In this document: positions 1,243 to 30,315 of the stretch, one piece after another
Layout of the letters: each line of letters begins with the position of its first letter
How positions within the stretch are numbered: position 1 is the first letter of the stretch
DNA from: an uncultured delta proteobacterium
Lineage (GTDB): Bacteria; Desulfobacterota; RBG-13-43-22
Length of the DNA stretch: 64,000 nt
Reading direction: 5' to 3'
NCBI GenBank assembly: GCA_963790475.1
Contig: CAWBOS010000006.1
Coordinates: forward strand, 224,001-288,000
Position numbers and translations under genes: made by a program
Notes under the pieces: model-generated
The model's input: the letters and a program-made list of their open reading frames with translations, nothing else
Told to the model about the DNA's origin: nothing
Database searches by the model: none

Positions 1243-1508
1243 TTCCCAAAAACCTTATCGTACTCGACCCATTTTCCCAGATTGGCCTCCTGGATAGATT
1301 TTCGAATGATTTTCATGGCCGACTCATCGGAAAGGATGTCGATGGTCTCGAGGAGACCTATAAATTTTCTCATACTAATCAAAACAGCCTCTGGAGCGCC
1401 GTTTTTAGTAATGGCGAAGGCATCGTCGGAATCCTCAAGTTTTCGGATTAAATTCAGAAGATTGCTTTTAGCTTTGGTGATTGGGATATAATCCTGTATG
1501 ATCTGCAT
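1239..1508 (-). CDS. Phd/YefM-family antitoxin
   Basis: IPITKAKSNL, ITKNGAPEAVLIS, ETIDILSD motifs; 4-nt overlap with toxin. Confidence 0.93.
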   Translation of the reverse strand: MQIIQDYIPITKAKSNLLNLIRKLEDSDDAFAITKNGAPEAVLISMRKFIGLLETIDILSDESAMKIIRKSIQEANLGKWVEYDKVFGK

Positions 1509-1524
1509 ATTTATTCTCCAATAG

Positions 1525-1563
1525 TTTTAATGGTCATTATACTGACTATTAAAATGCTGTCAA
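1525..1563 (-). promoter_or_regulatory. sigma70 promoter with overlapping palindromic operator (Phd-RelE autoregulation)
   Basis: Minus strand TTGACA-N16-TATAAT; palindrome ttttaatggtca-ttatac-tgactattaaaa (1525-1554) centred on the -10 box. Confidence 0.8.
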
Positions 1564-1622
1564 CCTATTTTGTGGGACGCAAAAATAGTTGATTTGTCGG
1601 AGGTAAATTTGGTAGTTTCTTG

Positions 1623-1810
1623 CCGCAGACCGGCACAGACAGGACCGGACAAAACCGTGTCTCTCACAGAGCGCACAGAGGCACAGAGAAAACTAATTTA
1701 TGGATTGCCGTTGAGGGGAAGGCAATCCAAAACCAGCGTCGCCTTTCCGCGAAATAATCTCTCTCTGAGAACTCTGAGGGCTTGAGTGACCGGAGGGAAC
1801 GGGCGAGAGG
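1623..1810 (+). repeat. Structured dispersed repeat, complete empty copy (leader + L arm + hairpin + R arm)
   Basis: L tctctcacagagcgcacagaggcacagag (1660), hairpin ggattgcc-gttgaggggaa-ggcaatcc, R ctctgagaactctgagggcttgagtgaccggagggaacgggcgagagg (1763-1810). Confidence 0.9.
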
Positions 1811-1819
1811 AAAATCTTT

Positions 1820-1914
1820 ATCTCTCACAGAGCTCACAGAGACACAGAGGCAAGAAAGATTTTCATTGCGTTTGAGAAGGCCGCAATTAAGACCTGTCTG
1901 TCGCCTGAAGGCGA
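1820..1914 (+). repeat. Structured dispersed repeat, L arm with hairpins
   Basis: atctctcacagagctcacagagacacagag, attgcg-tttgagaaggc-cgcaat, tcgcctgaaggcga. Confidence 0.85.
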
Positions 1915-2154
1915 AGATGCTTCTCTGGAGTGTATATATTAATTGAGGGATTAAGATTTAATAAGTTCCGGAATCAAACAAATCAGGTATTCTCCCGATG
2001 CTGCTTGGGGCAAGGCATAAGTTGTCTTCTTGGCATTTTATGCCGATGGCTATAAGAAGGTGAGGATGGTACGATTAGCAAGGTTTGTTATAACCGGCGT
2101 CCTTCGCTCACCCCAATATCCCCGGATGATTAAAAAATTTTTTTCGAGTTTACG

Positions 2155-2811
2155 ATGATGAAAAATCGATCCACTCAAAATTGGTACAGGCAGATCAAGG
2201 TGTTATTACCTACAATACTGATCGCCTATTCAATAACATTGGCGGCTATTGTCGGAATCTCCATTTATGCAATTTCCACAGGGAGGCGAATCTGGTATTT
2301 CACGGTTGATCCGTTTCTTATTGGCAACCTGCCATTTTATGCCGGCTTTCTTTCTAATTTGGGACTGCTTTTGTGGAGTGCCAGCGCAACGGTTTGTTTT
2401 TTTAGCGCAATGATCCTGCGTGATGAAGAATTAATAAACCGATATAGGTATTTTTTTGTTATGTCTGGTCTCTTTACTTCCTTGATTATGTTTGACGGTC
2501 TCTTTCAGATGCATCGCATTTTCTATCCGAATCACCTTCATCTCTCAACTTTTATGATCTATTGCGTTTATAGTATTCTTGGACTCTGGTATCTCTTTAT
2601 TTTTAGAAAACAAATTATGGAGACTGAATATTTAATGCTTGCCTTGGCTTTAAGCTTCCTTGGGTTGGCCGTAATTATTGATACCGTGTCTATGGTACCG
2701 AGAGGTCGTACGGCGCTTTCGGATTTATTTAAATTTTTTGGAATTGTGAGCTGGTTCATCTATTTTATCCGCACTTGCCGGAAGGTTCTGAGGAATGAGG
2801 AAAAAGGATAA
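2155..2811 (+). CDS. Hypothetical multi-pass membrane protein
   Basis: 218 aa ORF with about 6-7 hydrophobic segments; AT-rich; no motif recognised. Confidence 0.75.
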   Translation: MMKNRSTQNWYRQIKVLLPTILIAYSITLAAIVGISIYAISTGRRIWYFTVDPFLIGNLPFYAGFLSNLGLLLWSASATVCFFSAMILRDEELINRYRYFFVMSGLFTSLIMFDGLFQMHRIFYPNHLHLSTFMIYCVYSILGLWYLFIFRKQIMETEYLMLALALSFLGLAVIIDTVSMVPRGRTALSDLFKFFGIVSWFIYFIRTCRKVLRNEEKG

Positions 2812-2844
2812 AGGATCGTGGAGATTTACCTAAAACGAAAGTTC

Positions 2845-2895
2845 CTCTCTCAGAACTGTGAGGGCAAGATTGACCGGGGAGTGAGCGGCGAGAGG
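2845..2895 (+). repeat. Structured dispersed repeat, R arm
   Basis: ctctctcagaactgtgagggcaagattgaccggggagtgagcggcgagagg, homologous to 1763-1810. Confidence 0.85.
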
Positions 2896-2905
2896 AAAAG
2901 TCTTT

Positions 2906-3138
2906 ATCTCTCACAGAGCTCACAGGGGGCACGGAGATGATATTTATTGATTGCCGTTGAGGGAGGGGGCGGCAATCAATATCCATCCGTCGCCTGGCGA
3001 CGACCCGTGGTTACACGCCCAAAGGGCCAGATGGTAGGAGGAAGACAAGTCGTCTTCCCTCCTGTCAGGTATTTGTCTGTGGCAAAAGAAGCTCTGAGAA
3101 CTGAGGGCTCAATTGACCGAAGGGAACGGGCGAGAGAA
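2906..3138 (+). repeat. Structured dispersed repeat, complete copy containing the extra hairpin module
   Basis: L arm at 2906, attgattgccg...cggcaatcaat hairpin, gtcgcctggcgac, ggaagac-aagtc-gtcttcc module (3017-3063), R arm 3092-3136. Confidence 0.9.
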
Positions 3139-3256
3139 AACAGGAGACGTCGGAAAATTGTGTCTAAGCACAAAGAATGGCGCCAGTTTTTCGCCTTGGC
3201 TTAAGACCAAGAATTATATCCCATTGAAATACTGATTTTTTTTATAGGCCTCCTCA

Positions 3257-3272
3257 TGGCATAGGTTTTGCT
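3257..3272 (+). promoter_or_regulatory. sigma54 (-24/-12) promoter
   Basis: TGGCATAGGTTTTGCT: GG-N10-GC spacing, about 60 nt upstream of the protease ATG. Confidence 0.7.
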
Positions 3273-3329
3273 AAATCAGGAAGAAAGCAATTATCTCACT
3301 TTATCAATACTGGAGAAAGGGAGGTTTTT

Positions 3330-4178
3330 ATGATGGTGAAGAAGACTAGGGCTTCGAAGAACAGCTTTTCAGGAAAAAGGGGTTATGGGTGGGTGCCGGA
3401 TATTCCGGATCAGAGGGATTATCTTTTAAGCGCAGTGCTTAAGGTGCCGGCCAGGCTGCCTGGCAAGGTAGATTTGCGGCCGCTCTGTTCCAAGATTGAA
3501 GATCAGGGCCAACTGGGGAGCTGCACGGCCAATGCCCTGGCCGGGGCCATCGAGTTCCTGGAACGAAAGGACAAGGTTCCTTTTCAGGATTTCAGCAGGC
3601 TCTTTATTTACTATAACGAACGGGCCTTGGAACACACCATAAACTCCGATTCGGGGGCCATGATCCGGGATGGGATCAAGACTATGGCCAAGCAAGGGGT
3701 CTGCTCCGAGAAGAGCTGGCCCTATGAGGTATCCAAGTTTAAATCTAAACCGGGACCAGCCTGCTATAAAGAAGCCTTGGAACATCAGATCACCTCCTAT
3801 CGTCGTATTCTCACCCTTGATCAGATGCGGACCTGTCTGGCCGAAGGGTTCCCTTTTATCTTTGGCTTTACCGTGTACGAGAGCTTTGAAACCCAGGAAG
3901 TCGCCCGGACCGGTGTTGTGAATATGCCCGACCATGGCGAGCAGGTGCTCGGAGGGCATGCCGTTCTCGCCGTGGGGTACGATCATTCCAAAGAGAGATT
4001 TATTGTCCGAAATTCCTGGGGAAGCGGTTGGGGCCTGAAGGGCTATTTCACCATGCCCTATAAATACCTCAGCAACCGTAACCTTTCCGACGACTTTTGG
4101 ACCATCCGCAGGGGAGAATTGATGGTTCCCAGAAAAAAGGAAAGGATTGAGGTACGAGGAAAAAGAGTTGAGGGGTGA
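3330..4178 (+). CDS. C1A papain-family cysteine protease
   Basis: DQGQLGSCTANA (Gln/Cys), GGHAVLAVGY (His), VRNSWGSGWG (Asn); RBS GGAGG. Confidence 0.95.
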   Translation: MMVKKTRASKNSFSGKRGYGWVPDIPDQRDYLLSAVLKVPARLPGKVDLRPLCSKIEDQGQLGSCTANALAGAIEFLERKDKVPFQDFSRLFIYYNERALEHTINSDSGAMIRDGIKTMAKQGVCSEKSWPYEVSKFKSKPGPACYKEALEHQITSYRRILTLDQMRTCLAEGFPFIFGFTVYESFETQEVARTGVVNMPDHGEQVLGGHAVLAVGYDHSKERFIVRNSWGSGWGLKGYFTMPYKYLSNRNLSDDFWTIRRGELMVPRKKERIEVRGKRVEG

Positions 4179-4585
4179 TCTCTCACAGAGCAGAGGGAGG
4201 CACAGAGGGGAAAAGCTCATAGCTCAAAGCTGATAGCTGATAGCGAGAAAGAACTATCAAGAGATAGCGTCATTATTTTTTCATTGCGGTCGAGAAGGAC
4301 CGCAGTTGTCTATGACAAAAGAAAAGAAGGATTTATAGCCACGGACGCACACGGACAAAGTCTGGACGAAAGATAATTTGCCTGGCCCCTACAAGGACGT
4401 GGCCAAGCAAACCCAGCCGTCGCCTGGCGGCGAACCTGGAGTTAAGTACCTGATCCATTAGGCCTTAGGTAAGCCGAAGGCTGGATGGGTTATGAAAATC
4501 GGCCTGACACCGAATTTTATAAAAAGTGGTTCCTTCTCTCTGGGAAATCTGAGGGCTCGAGTGACGGGAGGGAATGGGCGAGCGG
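4178..4585 (+). repeat. Structured dispersed repeat, expanded copy with internal heptamer tract and hairpins
   Basis: L arm at 4178; (t/a)agctga/ca heptamers 4213-4244; tgcggtc-gagaag-gaccgca; gccgaaggc...ttatgaaaatcgg...ccgaattttataa shared with 30050-30102; R arm 4538-4585. Confidence 0.8.
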
Positions 4586-4595
4586 AAAAGATCCG

Positions 4596-4623
4596 ATCTC
4601 TCACAGGGCACGCAGAGGCACAA
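4596..4623 (+). repeat. Structured dispersed repeat, L arm (short)
   Basis: atctctcacagggcacgcagaggcaca. Confidence 0.8.
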
Positions 4624-4649
4624 CTAGGCATTGCGCAATGTTTGAGTTA

Positions 4650-4678
4650 TTGACATTCTCTGAAGATGCGCTTAATAT
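4650..4678 (+). promoter_or_regulatory. sigma70 promoter of RHH-PIN operon
   Basis: TTGACA-N17-TAATAT. Confidence 0.65.
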
Positions 4679-4709
4679 AGGCTCATAATTAAACGCTAGA
4701 GGTGCAACA

Positions 4710-4940
4710 ATGAGAATAACCGCACATATTCCGGATAATATTGCAAAAGATGTTAAGAGGTTTGCTGACAATGAAAAGATGTCGGTATCGGCGGTAATAG
4801 CCGAAGCGCTTCAATATTATGTTTACGAAAAAAAAAAGATGGAAACCGGGAAAAAAGTTTTGGCCATGATCGGCAAGGTGCACGTTTCTGAAGATGCACA
4901 TAAAGAACTTAATAAAATGAGAGCAGAGACTGAAAGATGA
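4710..4940 (+). CDS. RHH/CopG-like antitoxin
   Basis: MRITAHIPDNI...SVSAVIAEALQYY RHH pattern; ATGA overlap with PIN gene. Confidence 0.85.
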   Translation: MRITAHIPDNIAKDVKRFADNEKMSVSAVIAEALQYYVYEKKKMETGKKVLAMIGKVHVSEDAHKELNKMRAETER

Positions 4941-5329
4941 TAGGTTTGGATTCGGGTTTTTTTGTTGAGCTTCTTAAGGGCAATCAACAAACCGAAAGAA
5001 TCTGGAATGACATTTTGGATGGTCAAGGTTCTGTAGTATCGTGCATTTCTTTATTTGAACTTAAGAGGCTCGGCCTGAAAGGTTTGATTGATATCAGCAC
5101 GATCGACACTATTAATGAAGCGATTATGAATATATGCAATATTGCCTGGTTAGATAATGTTACTGTTGTCAATACGGCTGCTAATTTTTCCCACGGATTG
5201 GGAATCCACATGGCTGATGCCTTGATCCTTTCAGGATTTATTAAATATGGAGTTACGAAAATATACACAACGGATCAACACATTTCTTTGTATAAGAAAA
5301 AAGGCGTGAGGGTTATTATGCTAATTTAA
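4937..5329 (+). CDS. PIN-domain (VapC-like) toxin
   Basis: GLDSG, SLFEL, ADALI, IYTTD acidic PIN residues. Confidence 0.9.
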   Translation: MIGLDSGFFVELLKGNQQTERIWNDILDGQGSVVSCISLFELKRLGLKGLIDISTIDTINEAIMNICNIAWLDNVTVVNTAANFSHGLGIHMADALILSGFIKYGVTKIYTTDQHISLYKKKGVRVIMLI

Positions 5330-5367
5330 TCCATGACTTTTTTTACTTTGTTCTTATAGGGCGCCTT

Positions 5368-5555
5368 TCAATTGACCGGATGGAACGGGCGTGAGAAAAA
5401 AGGTGAAAGGAACTAGGAGCGGGTTATGGGTGGGGATTTGTTGAGTTTGTTGAGTCAATTGGGTTCATTGAGTTATTGGGTTTAATTGGTAGGCTTGGGT
5501 ATCCTCTTTTAATACAAAAATACCGTTTGTCGTTTATCGTTCGGTGTTCGGCGAA
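5368..5555 (+). repeat. Partial R arm followed by 7-nt and 9-nt tandem tracts
   Basis: tcaattgaccggatggaacgggcgtgag; tttgttgag/tttgttgag/tcaattggg/ttcattgag/ttattggg; cgtttgt/cgtttat/cgttcgg/tgttcgg. Confidence 0.8.
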
Positions 5556-5701
5556 CCCCAATTTTCATACTTCGGGGCGGTTGGCAAAGGTCTGAGGGTT
5601 TTATATAAAAAAACTCCGCACAAACTGTACGGGTTTTTTATCGGTAATAAATTGTTTGGGATAAGAATTTTATTAGTGTTTTTTCCTTGTCCGGGTAGCG
5701 G

Positions 5702-5910
5702 CTAACTCTTAATTCTCAAATTTTCTAAAGTTGGAACCGTTTTAAAGAGATCGCTTTCCGTTGCCTTTCGGTCGAAGGTGTAAGTTACCACAGCCTTTTC
5801 ACGATGATTGGAAAGACCGATAAGATAGTCGGCAAAGTCAGCCTTTCAGTCTGCCGCTGGTCATTGCGGACAATATAGCGAATAAGAACATTGGTATCCA
5901 ATCCAATCAA
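5702..5910 (-). pseudogene. PIN/VapC toxin pseudogene with internal deletion and frameshift
   Basis: Minus strand reads MIGLDTNVLIRYIVRNDQRQTE, then in another frame KADFADYLIGLSN...TYTFDRKA; the middle of the PIN domain is absent. Confidence 0.85.
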
Positions 5911-6140
5911 GACGATGCCCCTTTAGCTATTGCCTTATCCATATCAGCCAAGGATAGGGCTTTTTGGGGTTTAGGGACCATCCCCTTCAAACTGGATATC
6001 GTTTCCACCACAGGAATGATCTCCAACCTTTCATTGTCAATGACAATAAATTCCAGTTTACTGCCCGGGATAATTTTCAGTCGTCTCCTGGCTTCAGCCG
6101 GTAGAGTCACTTGTCCTTTGCTGGTTACCGTGGCAATCAT
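5907..6140 (-). CDS. AbrB/MazE/SpoVT-family antitoxin
   Basis: ATVTSKGQVTLPAEARRRLKI.PG motif. Confidence 0.93.
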   Translation of the reverse strand: MIATVTSKGQVTLPAEARRRLKIIPGSKLEFIVIDNERLEIIPVVETISSLKGMVPKPQKALSLADMDKAIAKGASS

Positions 6141-6215
6141 TTCTTACCTCTTCTATATGTTCCTTACTTTTTAACCTTACTTTATCCAAATAAAATATTT
6201 TGTCAAGAGAATCCA

Positions 6216-6293
6216 TGTCCGGAGGGGATGGGCGAGAGAAGAAAATAGTGCCCTGAGGGACTGACGATAGGAGGAAGACAGGTCGTCTTCCTC
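6216..6293 (+). repeat. Partial R arm plus ggaagac hairpin module
   Basis: tccggaggggatgggcgagag; agtgccctgagggactgacgataggaggaagacaggtcgtcttcctc. Confidence 0.8.
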
Positions 6294-6377
6294 GTTTCCA
6301 GCCGTAGTCGTTGGTACAAGGAAAATCCTCATTGCTAAAATTCCGAATGTAGTGTATTGTAGTACAAGAGGTGGGAA

Positions 6378-6596
6378 ATGAGAAACGTATTATCTGTGAG
6401 CCTTCCGGGAAATTTGGTGAAAGACCTTAATAGTTTTGCCAAGTCAACAGGAAGGAATAAAAGCGACATTTTAAGAGATTCGTTGGGCAATTACCTTTGG
6501 GAAATTAAATTCAAGGAGACCAAGAAACGCCTTTCCGCCAAAGCAAAGAAAGCCGGAATCATAACCGAAGATGATGTTTTTAAAACGGTATCATGA
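6378..6596 (+). CDS. CopG/RHH antitoxin
   Basis: VLSVSLP...GRNKSDILRDSL; GIITEDDVF C-terminus; ATGA overlap. Confidence 0.9.
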   Translation: MRNVLSVSLPGNLVKDLNSFAKSTGRNKSDILRDSLGNYLWEIKFKETKKRLSAKAKKAGIITEDDVFKTVS

Positions 6597-7000
6597 AAGC
6601 CGCTTTCGATACTAATGTCCTAGTTGCGGCATTCCTTACCGACGGTTTATGCTCCAAGCCCCTTTTAAGAGCACGCCGCAAGGAATTCTCCTTAATTCTG
6701 TGCCCTTATATTTTGCAGGAGTTTCAAAAATTTCTTCAAGCAAAAATTAAGGCCTCAAGCCGGGAAATAGAAATGGCGGTTAAGCTCCTTGAAGAAGGGG
6801 CTTTTGAGATAAAGCATCCTTCGATGATTATTGAAAGGACATGCCGAGATATCGATGATGATAATATTCTCAGCTGTGCCTTGGCTTCAGAATCGGAGTA
6901 TTTGGTGACCGGAGATGATGATTTATTAACACTTCATAAGTATGGAAAAACAAAAATCATCAAACCTCGACAGTTTGAAGATCTTTTTGTCGACAATTAA
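6593..7000 (+). CDS. PIN-domain toxin (TIGR00305/PIN_3-like)
   Basis: FDTNVLVAA, CRDIDDDNILSCA, LVTGDDDLL. Confidence 0.93.
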   Translation: MKAAFDTNVLVAAFLTDGLCSKPLLRARRKEFSLILCPYILQEFQKFLQAKIKASSREIEMAVKLLEEGAFEIKHPSMIIERTCRDIDDDNILSCALASESEYLVTGDDDLLTLHKYGKTKIIKPRQFEDLFVDN

Positions 7001-7054
7001 AAGAATTGCCCAACCACGTTCTTCGGTTATCGGTGGCAAAAAAAGCCTTTCTAT

Positions 7055-7254
7055 CCACGGACCCACACAGACAGAAACTGGGACAATAGCTTATCTCTCG
7101 CGGAGCACGCGGAGGCACAGAGATTTTTTTCATTGCGGTTGAGGGACCGCAATGAAAAACACCCCGTAGTCTGATTTCCCTTTCTCAGAAAATCAGACTA
7201 TAAGTAACACACTCTGCAAACTCTGAAGGCTTGAGCGAAGCGGGCGGGAGAAAA
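7055..7254 (+). repeat. Structured dispersed repeat, complete empty copy
   Basis: Leader ccacggacccacacagac, L arm at 7093, ttttcattgcggt-tgaggg-accgcaatgaaaa, tagtctgattt...aaatcagacta, R arm 7212-7254. Confidence 0.88.
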
Positions 7255-7264
7255 GGGGTTTTGA

Positions 7265-7485
7265 AGTCAAAATGAAAAATGGAAAGTGCAGTTTGGTCTG
7301 TTTGGTCTATTGAGTCTATTGAGTTTGTTGAGTTCATTGCGTTGAGGAGAGAGGAAGAAGGAGAAAGGACAGGAAACACGGGGAAGAATGGATTGATGGA
7401 ATAATGGAAAAGGCAACAAGGATCAACCCAAACCACTCAAGTAACTCAATAACCCAACTAACTCAAGCAACCCAATAAATTCAAC
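7265..7485. repeat. Mosaic of 7-, 9- and 8-nt tracts with complementary 9-nt arms
   Basis: gtttggtct/gtttggtct/attgagtct/attgagttt/gttgagttc (7291-7345) versus caacccaaa/ccactcaag/taactcaa/taacccaac/taactcaag/caacccaat (7424-7485). Confidence 0.8.
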
Positions 7486-7505
7486 GGTGCCGGGTTCAGA
7501 TGAAT

Positions 7506-7908: not shown

Positions 7909-8145
7909 ATGATAGAGGTAAATGCCAAAAAGGCTCGTGGGCAGTTAAGCTCCTTGCTTAAACAAGTCGAGGAAGGAGAAGAAGTGATCATTTCCCGTAA
8001 TGGAAAAAGGATTGCCCGGATGGTTTCTTTAATAGAATCCCCCAAGCGACTTCCAAGCTTGAATGATTTCAGGGCAAAGGTCAGAATTAATGGTGAGCCG
8101 CTGAGTGGAATCGTGGTGCAATCCCGGAAGGAAGAACGCTATTGA
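7909..8145 (+). CDS. Phd/YefM-family antitoxin
   Basis: VNAKKARGQLSSLL...GEEVIISRNGKRIARMV; upstream TTGACA (7826) with palindrome acactttat-ggt-ataaagtgt. Confidence 0.92.
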   Translation: MIEVNAKKARGQLSSLLKQVEEGEEVIISRNGKRIARMVSLIESPKRLPSLNDFRAKVRINGEPLSGIVVQSRKEERY

Positions 8146-8212
8146 TGATGGTATTGAAAAAAGTTCACAATCGTTACGAGCCTATTGAGGCATCATCCTA
8201 GGGAGGTAATCG

Positions 8213-8668
8213 TTGATGGTTTATGTAGATACCAGTCTTCTTGCCGCCTATTATTCCCCTGAACCTTTGAGCGGGAAAGCAGAGGAATTTCTAATTGGTC
8301 AGGAGGGGTTGGCCATCAGCAGTCTGACCGAAATTGAGCTTTTTTCAGCCCTTTCAAGAAAGGTGCGGGAGGAAGGACTTCATCAAATGGATGCTAAAAA
8401 GATTGCTTCTCGGTTTCTGTCCCATGTGGATGGGAATTTTTTCAAATATCTTACAGTAGAAACCAGACATTATCGACTGGCACGTGATTGGTTGGGGTTG
8501 TTCAACACCAGTCTGCGAAGCCTGGATGCCTTGCATTTAGCCGTAGCCTCATCACAAGGATTAGCTGTCGCTACCTCCGATCTTAAATTTTCCCAATCAG
8601 CTCGCGCAATGGGTCTGGAAGTTCTGTTGATTTCGTTTGAGGAGCCGAATGCCGAGAAAAGCATTTAA
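8213..8668 (+). CDS. VapC/PIN toxin
   Basis: YVDTSLL, LTEIEL, LRSLDALHLAVA, ATSD. Confidence 0.94.
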   Translation: MMVYVDTSLLAAYYSPEPLSGKAEEFLIGQEGLAISSLTEIELFSALSRKVREEGLHQMDAKKIASRFLSHVDGNFFKYLTVETRHYRLARDWLGLFNTSLRSLDALHLAVASSQGLAVATSDLKFSQSARAMGLEVLLISFEEPNAEKSI

Positions 8669-10315: not shown

Positions 10316-10571
10316 GTGAAAGGGAAAAGGGGAAAGGGGAGAGGGGTTGGTTACGGGTTACAAGTTGCGGATTCATTGAAAAGTCTTGGGTTGAGGACTG
10401 AGGAGAAAGGATTTTTTACGCCAAATCCAACAAATTACAGTCAGTCAATAAAGGAAACAGACCAAACGACCAGACAGATAAAACAGACCAAACGACCAGA
10501 CAGATAAAACAGACCAGAAAGACCAAAAAAACGAACAGACCAAAAAAAAACCAGATAGACTCAATTAACTC
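10316..10571. repeat. Heptamer tracts followed by AC-rich ~9-nt tract containing a perfect 26-bp tandem duplication
   Basis: aaaggga/aaagggg; ggttacg/ggttaca/agttgcg; aaacagaccaaacgaccagacagata at 10455-10480 and 10481-10506. Confidence 0.85.
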
Positions 10572-10801
10572 TAAAAACAAAGCACCTTAATGCTAACAGC
10601 CGGCAGATCTTCCAAGAGGGGAAACCCTGGAAATTCCTTTACCTCTGTTCCATTTTGGTCTAATCTGGTCTTTAGGTAATGCTCGGAGACTGAAACGATG
10701 CCCGGGCCCGCTGATCCGGACTCCCGGTTATTTCTTTAGCCAAAAAAACTTCATTCGGAGGGTTAAGGTTAAAAGGCCACAGACCAAAGAGGAAGATAAG
10801 G

Positions 10802-11686
10802 ATGATGATGGACAAACAAACCAAACTGAGAACCGCATTATTTTTTCTGATAACAGTCATTATCGGCCTGTTGATTTTATTTCCTCTAAAGGCACTTTTG
10901 TATTCGGAATCCAAAGGGATGTATTATGAATATTATTCCCATATTCTTTTGATACCCCTGGTGAGCGCCTACTTGCTTTATAACCGTCGCCAAGAAATAT
11001 GGGAATTCAAGAAAACCGCCATCCCGGTGTCGGGAGTTTTGGTTGGCGTTATTGGTATTATAGGCTACGGGACAGCCTTGGTACAAGATCAAAACATGGG
11101 ATTCATTAATGCCGTCGCCGGGCAAATCACTGGCTTACTTATTGCCTGGTTGGGAGCCTTCCTGCTTTTCTGGGGGACGGCCGCTTTTCGGCAGGCCCTT
11201 TTCCCTTTGCTGTTCCTTTTCTTTATGGTGCCGGTCCCCATGGATCTGATGGACGCCTTTATTTATGCCCTCCAGTGGGGGTCTTCCGAGGCTACAGGGC
11301 TGATCTTCAGTGTCCTCGGCACCCCTTATTACCGGGAAGGCTTCATCTTTCAACTGCAGACGGTCACCATCGAAGTAGCCAGGCAGTGCAGCGGCATCCG
11401 CTCCACCATGGCCATGGTCATCACCGGTGTCCTGGCCGCCCACCTTTTTTTGCGCGACAACGGGAAGAAGCTGATCCTGATGTTGACCATATTACCAATA
11501 ACTGTTTTTAAAAACGGCCTAAGGATCGTCATCCTGACGCTTTTGGCCATTCATGTTGACATGCGTTTCCTGACCGACAGCTTTTTGCACCATTCCGGGG
11601 GGTTTTTGTTTTATATACCGGGACTTTTAATTTTTGGGGGAATCCTCTTGCTTTTAAGAAGAGTTGAAAAAAGGACTGAGGACTGA
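10802..11686 (+). CDS. Exosortase (EpsH/Xrt family)
   Basis: Multi-TM; YSHILLIP; catalytic-type motifs QCSGIRS, NGLRI, HHSGG; adjacent to prsK/prsR. Confidence 0.92.
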   Translation: MMMDKQTKLRTALFFLITVIIGLLILFPLKALLYSESKGMYYEYYSHILLIPLVSAYLLYNRRQEIWEFKKTAIPVSGVLVGVIGIIGYGTALVQDQNMGFINAVAGQITGLLIAWLGAFLLFWGTAAFRQALFPLLFLFFMVPVPMDLMDAFIYALQWGSSEATGLIFSVLGTPYYREGFIFQLQTVTIEVARQCSGIRSTMAMVITGVLAAHLFLRDNGKKLILMLTILPITVFKNGLRIVILTLLAIHVDMRFLTDSFLHHSGGFLFYIPGLLIFGGILLLLRRVEKRTED

Positions 11687-12288: not shown

Positions 12289-14415
12289 ATGCTTTCCTAT
12301 ACTTTACTTATATCTTTAGTCGCTGCTTCCCTGGCGGGTCTGATTGCCGCCCTGGCCCTGTATCGCGATCCCCACAACTTGGTACACAAGATATTGGCCG
12401 CTGGGATGGTGGTTCTGGCTGTTGACGCAATCTTGACCTTCCTGAGCAGGGGGGCTTCCGAGCCTATGGGCATGATCGCCTGGCGGCAATGGCTTTACCT
12501 GGTTTCTGCTTTTCTTCCGGCCTTGTGGCTGGCCTTCGGTCTCAGCTATGCCCGTGCCGATCACCGGGAAAATCTGTTGCGCTGGAAATGGACCCTGGGC
12601 CTCGTCTTGGTCATCCCTCTGGTGCTGGCTGGCATTTATCGGGATGCTCTTTTTGCCGGGCCGCCGGTTTGGATTCCCGACACCGGGTGGGTCATTCCCT
12701 TGGGATGGGCAGGTTACGCCTTTAATCTGTTCCTACTCATTACCTTTATTATGATTCTTCTCGATTTGGAAAAGACCCTACGGGGTTCGCGCGGGGTCAT
12801 GCGCTGGCAGATCAAGTTTACTGTCCTGGGTCTGATCGCCCTTTTCGGAGCACGGATATTCACTTCCAGCCAGAATATTCTTTATCGCTCCGATAACCTG
12901 GACTTGGCGCTGGTCAACAACGGGGCACTTATTATCGCCGGGGTGTTGATTCTTCGGTCGTTGTTTCGGACCAAATTCTTCAGTGCTGAGCTCTATGTTT
13001 CCCAAAAGATTCTCTACAACTCGCTGACCCTGCTGATTATCGGCATTTACTTCATCGCCGTCAGTCTTTTGGCCAAGCTTTCGACCTACTGGTTCCTCGG
13101 CCGGACCTTACCCCTCCAGGCCTTTTTCCTACTGGTGGCCCTGGTAGGTTTAACGATCCTCATTTTTTCCGACCGGCTTCGCCGCAAAACCAAGCTTTTT
13201 ATCAGCCGTAATTTCCAACGCCCCCTTTACGACTATCGTAAGGAATGGATCCGTTTCACCCAGGAGACCACGGCGGTTCGAAATGTCCAGGATCTTTGTC
13301 AGGCTGTAACCCGAATGGTTTCTGATATCCTCCATTTCCTTTCCGTAACCATCTGGTTGGTGGACGAAGCAGGTGGAAGGCTGGTTCTGGGCGGTTCCAC
13401 AGCGATTACCCAACAGGAGGCCGATTCTCTGAGACCCTTCGAAAAGGCACAGAAAGAATTAATCGAGGCTATGGCTATGGAAGTGGATCCGGTGGATTTT
13501 GACAGCGCTTCGACTTCCTGGTCCATCAGCATCCCGGAATTAGACCTGGAATTTTTGAAGGCGGCTCGAATCCGCTATGTGGTGACTCTTCGAGCCGGAG
13601 AAACCTTGATCGGGTTGTTGACCTTGGATCAAAGAGTAGCCGAAGATCTATTGACCCTGGAGGACTTCGACCTCATTAAGACCATCGCCGATCAGACTTC
13701 CGCCGGATTGAACCAGTTAAGATTGGCCGAAAAGGTCCAGAAGACCCGGGAGATGGAGGCCTTTCAAACCATGTCCACCTTTTTCATCCATGACCTGAAA
13801 AATGTGGCCTCCCGTCTTTCACTGACCATGCAGAATCTGCCGGTACATTTTAACAATCCCGAGTTCCGGCAAGATGCCCTGCAAAGCATCGGCCAGAGTC
13901 TGGAAAAGATCAACGGATTATGCAGCCGCCTATCCTCCTTGCGGGAAAAACTGGAGGTGCATCTGAAAGAAGCTGATCTGAACGAAATGGTAAAAAAGAA
14001 TCTATCTGAATTTGAAGGAGCGTTGCAAGCCCGCCTGATCCAGGACTTTACCCCACTTCCCAGAATTCCATTGGACCTGGAGCAGATTTCCAAGGTCCTG
14101 ACCAACCTGGTCTTAAATGCCAATGAAGCCCTAACTCCCGGGAATGCCGGCGGCGAAATCCGGGTGGCCACTCGCCTTTTGAATAATTGGGTCGAGTTTT
14201 CGGTTAGTGACAATGGTCTGGGCATGTCCCGGGAAATGATAGAGCGCTCCCTTTTCCTGCCTTTCCGGACCACCAAGAAGCAAGGCATGGGCATCGGCCT
14301 TTTTCAGAGTAAGATGATTGTCGAAGCCCACCACGGACGCATCGAGGTGGAAAGCGAGGAGGGAAAGGGGACGACGTTCAGGGTGTTGCTGCCGACCTAT
14401 AATAAAAGGGGGTAG
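12289..14415 (+). CDS. prsK: PEP-CTERM system histidine kinase
   Basis: N-terminal multi-TM region, YDYRKEW, GAF-like domain, FFIHDLKN H-box, GMGIGL ATPase; context. Confidence 0.9.
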   Translation: MLSYTLLISLVAASLAGLIAALALYRDPHNLVHKILAAGMVVLAVDAILTFLSRGASEPMGMIAWRQWLYLVSAFLPALWLAFGLSYARADHRENLLRWKWTLGLVLVIPLVLAGIYRDALFAGPPVWIPDTGWVIPLGWAGYAFNLFLLITFIMILLDLEKTLRGSRGVMRWQIKFTVLGLIALFGARIFTSSQNILYRSDNLDLALVNNGALIIAGVLILRSLFRTKFFSAELYVSQKILYNSLTLLIIGIYFIAVSLLAKLSTYWFLGRTLPLQAFFLLVALVGLTILIFSDRLRRKTKLFISRNFQRPLYDYRKEWIRFTQETTAVRNVQDLCQAVTRMVSDILHFLSVTIWLVDEAGGRLVLGGSTAITQQEADSLRPFEKAQKELIEAMAMEVDPVDFDSASTSWSISIPELDLEFLKAARIRYVVTLRAGETLIGLLTLDQRVAEDLLTLEDFDLIKTIADQTSAGLNQLRLAEKVQKTREMEAFQTMSTFFIHDLKNVASRLSLTMQNLPVHFNNPEFRQDALQSIGQSLEKINGLCSRLSSLREKLEVHLKEADLNEMVKKNLSEFEGALQARLIQDFTPLPRIPLDLEQISKVLTNLVLNANEALTPGNAGGEIRVATRLLNNWVEFSVSDNGLGMSREMIERSLFLPFRTTKKQGMGIGLFQSKMIVEAHHGRIEVESEEGKGTTFRVLLPTYNKRG

Positions 14416-29839: not shown

Positions 29840-29917
29840 ATAGACTAAGGTGTATAAAAAATTAATAGGGTCTAAGAAATTCCTTTGTAACATTTTATCT
29901 ATTCTCAATACGTTTTG

Positions 29918-30219
29918 CCACCGACCCACAAAGACTGGACCAAAGGCCTATCTCTCACAGAGCGCACAGAGGCGCAGAGAATTGATATTTTCTCATTGCC
30001 GGTGAGGGGCCAGCAATGAAAAACCAGTCATGCGCTATCGCGCACCCTGGCCGAAGGCCTGAGGGGTTATGAATAATCGGCCTCTCGCCGATTTTTCATA
30101 AAATATGGTCGTTTTTCTCTGAGAACTCTGAGGGCTCAAGAGACCGTAAGGGAACGGGCGAGAGGAAAAATTAGTGCCCGGAGGGCCTGACGGTAGGAGA
30201 AGACAAGTCGTCTTTCTCC
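29918..30219 (+). repeat. Solo copy of the structured dispersed repeat with all modules
   Basis: Leader, L arm at 29950, cattgc...gcaatg hairpin, ttatgaa...ttcataa hairpin, R arm 30117-30165, gaagac module 30173-30219. Confidence 0.9.
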
Positions 30220-30315
30220 AGTCTTGCAGTTTTCTGTGGTAAAAAGGAAATTGCTGTGCTTTTTTCAAAAAACTAAATTGATAAATTCGTTTAAGTATTA
30301 AGCGAGGTAGTATTC

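Follow-up and report, generated by a model that had tools for sequence, protein, structure and literature searches.

Gene-less shells of a GxxExxY nuclease element as a probable source of hairpin-unit arrays in a hypervariable toxin–antitoxin island

Miniature inverted-repeat transposable elements (MITEs) are short non-coding copies that share their ends with a gene-bearing form, mobile insertion cassettes (MICs; e.g., MIC231 of Bacillus cereus) carry passenger genes, and integron arrays hold small, often toxin–antitoxin, genes between structured imperfect inverted repeats, with an IntI recombinase and a GTTRRRY-type core. Here we examine a locus that recalls each of these systems: a 64,000-nt stretch (hereafter “the window”) of contig C6 of genome G000 (6.34 Mb, 20 contigs), from an uncultured delta proteobacterium, in which hairpin-rich repeat units bounded by a left (L) and a right (R) arm occur empty or with genes inside. 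The units also resemble the hairpins formed by repetitive extragenic palindromic (REP) sequences, known as REPINs, and their associated tyrosine transposases (RAYTs; Bertels and Rainey, 2011, PMC3116915; Nunvar et al., 2010, PMC2817692). Common to both are a few-copy gene within its own inverted repeats, gene-less hairpin copies that are dispersed intergenically and clustered in mosaics, and a family-wide, long-lived association in which the type of repeat is specific to the gene lineage. We consider it probable that the units of the window are gene-less shells of an element built around a GxxExxY nuclease gene, that these shells accumulated in an island both permissive and hypervariable, and that the foreign genes now found in two of them arrived by secondary insertion or recombinational replacement in an interior slot.

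Arm positions were obtained with nhmmer profiles made from the window's own L and R arms, together with a repeat finder and a reading of positions 1500-7400 (Table 1). Comparison of the nhmmer copies gives a unit order of L arm, a first hairpin (hp1), a second (hp2), an optional third (hp3, one of several alternatives) and R arm. The L arm consists of three CACAGAG-type heptads, hp1 has a conserved loop, (G/T)TGAG(G/A)GG, the GC hairpin hp2 is short, and the spacer that usually precedes R is AAAGT-CC. The hp1 stem is 8 bp long in 30 of the 51 distinct copies, and among these 30 its fourth pair varies between C-G (8 copies), G-C (12) and A-T (5), so that pairing has been preserved through compensatory change. 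A second, outer pair of arms, X (GCCACAGAC...GGACAAA) and its inverse X', accompanied by a module termed Y, encloses many copies; with so many units nested in outer arms, the elements are mosaics.

The occurrence of these repeats exceeds chance. G000 has 24 L and 22 R matches at E<0.02 (28 L and 31 R at E<=10), and the window holds 7 of the 24 and 7 of the 22. Across the genome they form 14 short L-to-R units of 160-414 nt (one with its L at E 0.1), one further weak pair, and two long L-to-R pairs, both of which lie within the window. Outside the window the units stand singly among ordinary or housekeeping genes and are mostly gene-less. With a strict regular expression, 20 of 25 adjacent (+,-) arm pairs of G000 likewise span <=300 bp; just one falls at 301-3000 bp, and it contains no open reading frame (ORF) over 30 aa. 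Among 20 other genomes of the family (of which G001, G004, G011, G013, G017 and G020 are named here), the unit is present in 18, with 0 to 30 matches per genome. Pairing of the 81 L and 46 R matches in five of these relatives yields 23 short units and two long L-to-R gaps. At the level of single sites, the elements are present or absent at orthologous positions between relatives. Specifically, the spacer orthologous to that of the solitary composite at 29908-30247 is empty in G011, while G004 keeps X, L and R there with a different interior. One stop-to-start operon spacer holds a B-type element (arm types are defined below) in G017 (L071, C27) and an X-type element in G011 (L072, C283), and the best-matching G000 site (C13:419520-419640) holds none; G017 and G011 here represent two genera. 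The GxxExxY gene in the G011 spacer element carries an in-frame TAA.

In this family, the full-length form of the element is a single GxxExxY gene (PDDEXK_3, PD-(D/E)XK fold) between arms. Three congener units (G001:C243, G011:C323 and G001:C314) enclose an ORF of 126-138 aa in the layout L-hp1-hp2-ORF-hp3-R, and these ORFs match Pfam PDDEXK_3 at E 5e-41 to 3e-39 and TIGR04256 (“GxxExxY protein”) at 2.2e-41. In five relatives, the coordinates put 5 of about 15 PDDEXK_3 loci no more than ~200 bp from A-type arms, and for 9 of the 16 PDDEXK_3 genes of G000 and the five relatives the inverted-repeat score of the flanks is greater than the maximum of 400 random G000 controls. The catalytic D, E and K are invariant. 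Arms are built of short tandem motifs that differ by gene lineage: CACAGAG (A), TTCACCGCAAAG/CGCAGAG (B), GCCGCAGAC (X type), CAGGATT (Z) and others. A distinct arm motif goes with each of the protein clades A, B, Z and C11, and clades at 63-98% identity match arm types.

The layout of arm, gene and inverted arm recurs across phyla, and the type of arm follows the nuclease clade. An alignment of six proteins retrieved 586 relatives from a species-genome collection. We retained the 80 best, which represent many phyla, and 61 of these had both flanks. We defined a heptad arm as three or more tandem copies of C[AG]CN[AG]A[GT], and took its background from 20000 random 315-nt windows of G000. An arm of three heptads stood within 300 nt upstream on the gene's strand in 39 of the 61 loci and downstream on the opposite strand in 35, with both present in 27; arms in the wrong orientation were found in 5 and 8 loci, and the background was 58 of 20000. 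In an inverted-alignment test, 22 of 61 loci scored above the 99th percentile of mismatched pairs, a control that is itself inflated by the arm motif which the loci share, and the regular-expression count with its genome background is preferred for this comparison. Rfam gave no matches in 20 GxxExxY loci.

The arm-bounded GxxExxY element family is thus widespread, and it is apparently undescribed, in that we found no paper describing the element. The PDDEXK_3 proteins form a large family, whose function Steczkiewicz et al. (2012, PMC3424549) list as unknown, and a passage on GxxExxY in PMC8934634 is unrelated to repeats. Searches for literature naming GxxExxY, PDDEXK_3 or PF13366 returned nothing on repeats, and we found neither a paper that combines PDDEXK with REPIN or RAYT nor one on MITEs in Syntrophaceae. 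The likeness to REPIN/RAYT described above also has limits: the protein here is a GxxExxY protein of ~125 aa with a PD-(D/E)XK fold, not a Y1 HUH transposase, and the arms are arrays of heptads, not a single REP palindrome. A direct Y1_Tnp/RAYT link was considered and is not supported. G000 has 20 Y1_Tnp matches, and 2 of the 7 long-form genes lie within 4 kb of any arm, but no Y1_Tnp gene in G000 is directly flanked by arms; the nearest is 2.6 kb from unit u1, with two toxin–antitoxin pairs between. One Y1_Tnp match (IS200/RAYT-like; G000:C6:223032-223358) is located ~640-970 bases before the window, directly upstream of the toxin–antitoxin island, and the 325-aa open frame to which it belongs ends ~25 bp before the window.

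Two units of the window contain genes other than that for the nuclease, as the sequence-only reading had described (u2 and u5 in Table 1). In u2, a hydrophobic ORF of 218 aa, putatively a membrane protein to judge from its composition, starts 240 nt past L-hp1-hp2, and 35 nt beyond it come the spacer usual before R and a complete R arm; the left and right fragments are complementary, as the parts of one unit would be. In u5, the L arm and a loop-less hp1 stem are followed by a promoter-like site that the cargo brings with it, a ribbon-helix-helix (RHH) antitoxin and PIN toxin pair, and then just the last 35 positions of R. Homologues of the 218-aa ORF occur in 2 of the 20 other family genomes, and the RHH-PIN cassette has no DNA homologue in any of the 20. 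Both cargos occupy the same internal slot as the GxxExxY ORF of the congeners, and foreign cargo is rare, being found in 2 of the 16 two-armed units of G000. Neither of the two long gaps in the relatives adds to this number. That in G011:C291 is a group II intron (RF02005, 51.2 bits, E 3e-13; L061:3430-3719) that seems to lack an intact ORF and lies within the R arm of a unit complete in other respects, and that in G001:C243 (3705 to 4188) resolves into short units.

Because an intron splits the R arm in G011:C291 and because the fragments of u2 are complementary, we favor secondary insertion: a later insertion or a recombination event is a likelier route of the foreign genes into the slot than capture by a dedicated system. 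The sequence of events would then be as follows. A GxxExxY nuclease may recognize or cut its own arms or hairpins, and so spread the element or gene-less copies of it, in a manner that by analogy would resemble RAYT/REPIN or a homing nuclease. Units left as shells would have piled up head to tail in the hypervariable toxin–antitoxin island, and the membrane gene and RHH-PIN most likely entered pre-existing gene-less units, either as mobile toxin–antitoxin DNA that inserted or by recombination between unit copies. Cargo may have settled in the interior since this would be the largest and most tolerant target.

Several observations weigh against this account. There is no A-clade GxxExxY gene in G000, where the best tblastn match is a B-type gene at 52% identity, and the window holds no GxxExxY remnant; therefore nothing in G000 is tied to the making of these copies, and its A-type units would be orphans. 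Simple co-inheritance would likewise make arm type match clade, and orthology among several of the loci means that these are not independent. In structure, R is a degenerate inverse of L (with CTCAGAG heptads) plus an extra hairpin part of 30 nt, so that L corresponds to a shortened R inverted, and a symmetric R'/R inverted pair occurs in just two G000 copies (C12:222697-222959 and C12:277512-277743). At aligned filled and empty orthologous sites, target-site duplications are not definable, the flanks being too diverged. Finally, solo arms (9 L and 6 R) are common in G000, such that pairing by chance is possible, and L-R duplex energies do not favor cognate arms (permutation p 0.40, in a test without power); the co-membership of L 1819 with R 2844, and of L 4596 with R 5368, is therefore not shown.

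The last of these points are also those that a chance juxtaposition would produce, i.e., the left fragment of one decayed copy and the R arm of another happening to flank a gene. The L5 and R5 fragments are both truncated, and the gene blocks of the island are divided among the interior of L..R (2), the interval between R and L (2, the peptidase and an RHH-PIN pair at 6378-7000) and an ambiguous position (1). We nevertheless regard this explanation as doubtful: L and R alternate strictly along the array as far as R5, three abutting R/L junctions imply tandem units that were once complete, the complementary fragments of u2 are joined to the usual AAAGT-CC spacer before R, and the slot is that of the GxxExxY ORF.

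Comparison of the island among relatives bears on the inference, drawn in the sequence-only reading, that the units form a cassette array in which genes are captured in the loop or are gained and lost by recombination between tandem units. The window is rich in toxin–antitoxin genes (by Pfam) from position 1 to ~12 kb, and content and order in this region differ between relatives that share anchors. In G013, the order is PemK/RHH (83-90% identity), peptidase (88-89%), X-L, a homologue of the membrane gene (59%) and then the block conserved from window position 12289; the membrane gene and peptidase thus stand in the order opposite to that in G000, and an X-L junction lies ahead of three successive gene blocks. 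The left flank of the G013 island maps to another G000 contig, and the left edge of the island is therefore undefined. In G017, the peptidase is followed by L-hp1..., a HicB/HicA-like pair (from reading of its translation), which replaces ~3 kb, and a possible R end; beyond these come the counterparts of the Phd/PIN pair at window 7909-8668 and of the gene at window 10699-11660. In G011 (C323), a ParE/Phd pair (76% and 88% identical) precedes an L arm, an ATPase-like ORF, PemK/RHH-like ORFs, a caspase-family gene and a GxxExxY-filled unit. Between G000 and G011, homology extends from Phd across the promoter and ends about two heptads into the L arm, and at the peptidase-L anchor homology among G000, G013 and G017 stops just past the L arm.

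These patterns would fit an active cassette system, in which the arms are recombination sites and genes are captured or excised in the loop, or swapped between tandem units, making the array akin to an integron without an integrase. The same slot is filled in five or six units (three with GxxExxY, and those with the membrane gene, RHH-PIN and possibly the HicBA of G017), four genomes combine common anchors with differing content, homology stops after L at two anchors, X-L recurs before the successive genes of G013, the orthologous unit of G000 and G004 keeps its arms around different interiors, and head-to-tail junctions of the type seen in the window are found in three genomes (also at G000:C15, G011:C323 and G001:C243). 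On the contrary, no recombinase is present on the contig (tyrosine recombinases, PF00589, have 19 matches in G000 and none on C6), foreign cargo is limited to the two units described and the long gaps of relatives have other explanations, the right-hand breakpoints are not clearly within repeats, and the movement of RHH-PIN cannot be shown as it is found nowhere else. Moreover, the G020 island beside the same conserved block is equally rich in toxin–antitoxin genes and has no arm matches in 18.1 kb. We therefore consider such a system improbable. The filled and empty forms, the ORF at a fixed slot in congeners, the differences in cargo and order between relatives and the left-hand homology ends support the sequence-only reading in part, whereas a dedicated capture system finds no such backing, given that most units are solitary and gene-less, that the family usually carries a GxxExxY gene and that the G020 island varies without arms.

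A related account is in our view equally unlikely: the shells would be cassettes of exchangeable cargo in an integrase-free island, with arms cut or recombined just past the heptads, whether through host repair at the hairpins or through the trans action of a GxxExxY nuclease. Other genes, such as toxin–antitoxin pairs or a membrane protein gene, might then replace the interior, and units might become stacked head to tail. As to integrons themselves, and integrase-less attC clusters, the likeness lies in small toxin–antitoxin genes separated by structured imperfect inverted repeats and in content that is hypervariable between relatives. They differ in that the units here are complete without a gene and mostly solitary, where in an integron every cassette has a single site, at its 3' end, and in that no GTTRRRY-type core was seen at unit ends. 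With no IntI-type recombinase on the contig and gene blocks both inside and between units, the integron reading was rejected.

The gene-less copies share ends with a gene-bearing form, as in MITEs, and passenger genes between the ends would fit a MIC. However, no DDE or other transposase lies inside any arm pair of G000, and no target duplication could be read in the diverged flanks; an autonomous element with X or R ends was sought in G000 and none was found.

The hairpins might instead be REP-like repeats, or bacterial interspersed mosaic elements (BIMEs), or regulator-binding elements that the host maintains for a function of its own, with the nearby genes incidental; they could act as hairpins that stabilize mRNA or terminate transcription, or as sites bound by protein. 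The compensatory changes and conserved loop of hp1 would suit such a role, as would hp3, whose forms resemble two-way terminators. In Geobacter metallireducens, the relevant passages of Aklujkar et al. (2009, PMC2700814) interpret paired opposite-strand arrays of octa- or heptanucleotides as sites of a global regulator, and those sites resemble the arms in forming opposite-strand pairs of four or five tandem repeats each, with tens of copies per genome; they differ in unit (GTTGCTYN and MTYCTGA), and those passages mention no link to GxxExxY. A host function is nonetheless very hard to reconcile with match numbers that range from 0 to 30 among congeners, with presence and absence at orthologous sites, and with arms that across phyla bracket one gene family in one orientation. 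Nor did Rfam 15 identify a known structured element, with no matches at the gathering score in the window and, within 1500-7500, none at E<=1 that falls on a unit. We rate this explanation as the least probable of those considered here, while noting that it is not exclusive of a selfish origin.

If the link between arms and nuclease were functional, GxxExxY proteins would be the partner of very widespread selfish hairpin elements, a parallel to RAYT/REPIN built on a different enzyme fold. The window displays a subfamily whose arms are modular and asymmetric and lie nested in outer arms, together with head-to-tail arrays and with units that hold other genes in the nuclease slot inside a hypervariable toxin–antitoxin island, and is a good place for testing whether cargo can be carried by shells. 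In the annotation of these genomes, the units account for numerous small ORFs that are spurious and for numerous repeats between genes.

The features of the array are collected in Table 1. The four empty units of the sequence-only reading (u1, u3, u6 and that within the solitary composite) and the head-to-tail abutment of units across short A-rich linkers were recovered, and one unit that it had missed, the 414-nt u4, is added.

Table 1. Coordinates of arms, units and associated genes in the window (position 1 is the first nucleotide of the window).
Feature	Position	Strand	Evidence or remark
L arms (start positions)	1658, 1819, 2905, 4178, 4596, 7092, 29949		nhmmer; heptad-arm expression matches at 1664, 1825, 7098 and 29955, remaining L arms by profile
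R arms	1760-1817, 2844-2902, 3092-3142, 4534-4591, 7209-7257, 30114-30172		nhmmer
Partial R arms	5368-5402, 6216-6240		profile positions 24-58 for the first; second weak, E 0.046
R/L junctions with short A-rich linkers	1817/1819, 2902/2905, 4591/4596
X module before L1	1615..1654	+	nhmmer X profile C6:225615-225654, E 0.0093; type GCCACAGAC...GGACAAA
Empty unit u1: L, hp1, hp2, R	1658..1817	+
Left part of u2: L 1819-1850, hp1 1864-1887, hp2 1900-1915	1819..1917	+
Cargo 1: 218-aa hydrophobic ORF	2155..2811	+	without Pfam or NCBIfam family
R arm ending u2, full length, diverged	2844..2902	+	nhmmer E 1.3e-12
Empty unit u3, with Y/X' module 3017-3090 ahead of R	2905..3142	+
Papain-family Peptidase_C1 gene between units (R3 upstream, L4 at stop codon)	3330..4178	+	Pfam E 7.3e-19
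Empty unit u4, 414 nt, extra modules, internal X 4332-4367	4178..4591	+
Left part of u5: L arm and palindrome CATTGCGCAATG (hp1 stem, no loop)	4596..4640	+
Sigma-70-like promoter match for RHH-PIN	4650..4678	+	TTGACA, 17 nt, TAATAT; 10/12
Cargo 2: RHH antitoxin 4710-4940 and PIN toxin 4937-5329	4710..5329	+	Pfam RHH_1, PIN
Partial R (last 35 positions) 3' of PIN gene	5368..5402	+
Orphan partial R 6216-6240, then Y module	6216..6300	+
X module and empty unit u6 (unit itself 7092-7257)	7046..7257	+
Solitary composite X-[L hp1 hp2 hp3 R]-Y-X'	29908..30247	+	unit itself 29949-30172

The papain-family peptidase between u3 and u4 has relatives of 51-89% identity in metagenome-assembled genomes of many phyla (23 loci, L033-L055), which suggests that it spread horizontally. 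Two copies are found in G017, 20 kb apart, and the G013 copy (L027:12650-14378, C114) is split by a 1.7-kb insert with an ORF of 470 aa resembling an IS transposase. We considered whether the membrane gene is a partner of the peptidase, and whether the peptidase and L travel as a unit, and rejected both, as the two genes are adjacent in just 1 of 23 other loci and an L arm follows the gene in 3 of 24 (the window, G013 and copy 1 of G017).

Public reads were available as short Logan contigs of low depth. Joints in these contigs from R (~1808-1814) to ~3016-3025 were rejected as empty alleles, since they correspond to the usual R-Y arrangement of other repeat copies. A joint from 4127 to 7252 in X2 (side 39, with 34 other letters between), which would delete L4 to R6, was likewise rejected as too short and repeat-prone.

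Tandem repeats of 9 nt (TTGAGTNNG / GGTCTGTTT and their complements) are present in the window at 80-114, 5430-5480, 7290-7345 and 10464-10542; they come after several R arms and also occupy the interior of the orthologous G004 unit. Elsewhere in G000, C11:166303-170609 contains three consecutive GxxExxY genes that are 98% identical, each preceded by a small gene whose product has a C-terminus resembling, by eye, the “four-helix-bundle / 23S rRNA intervening-sequence protein,” and this triplet has its own CCGTG-type and CTATGCT-type repeats. Within the island, window positions 5785-6140 hold a MazE/AbrB-type antitoxin gene (5907-6140, minus strand) followed by just a 41-aa PIN-like fragment (5785-5910), apparently a decayed toxin.

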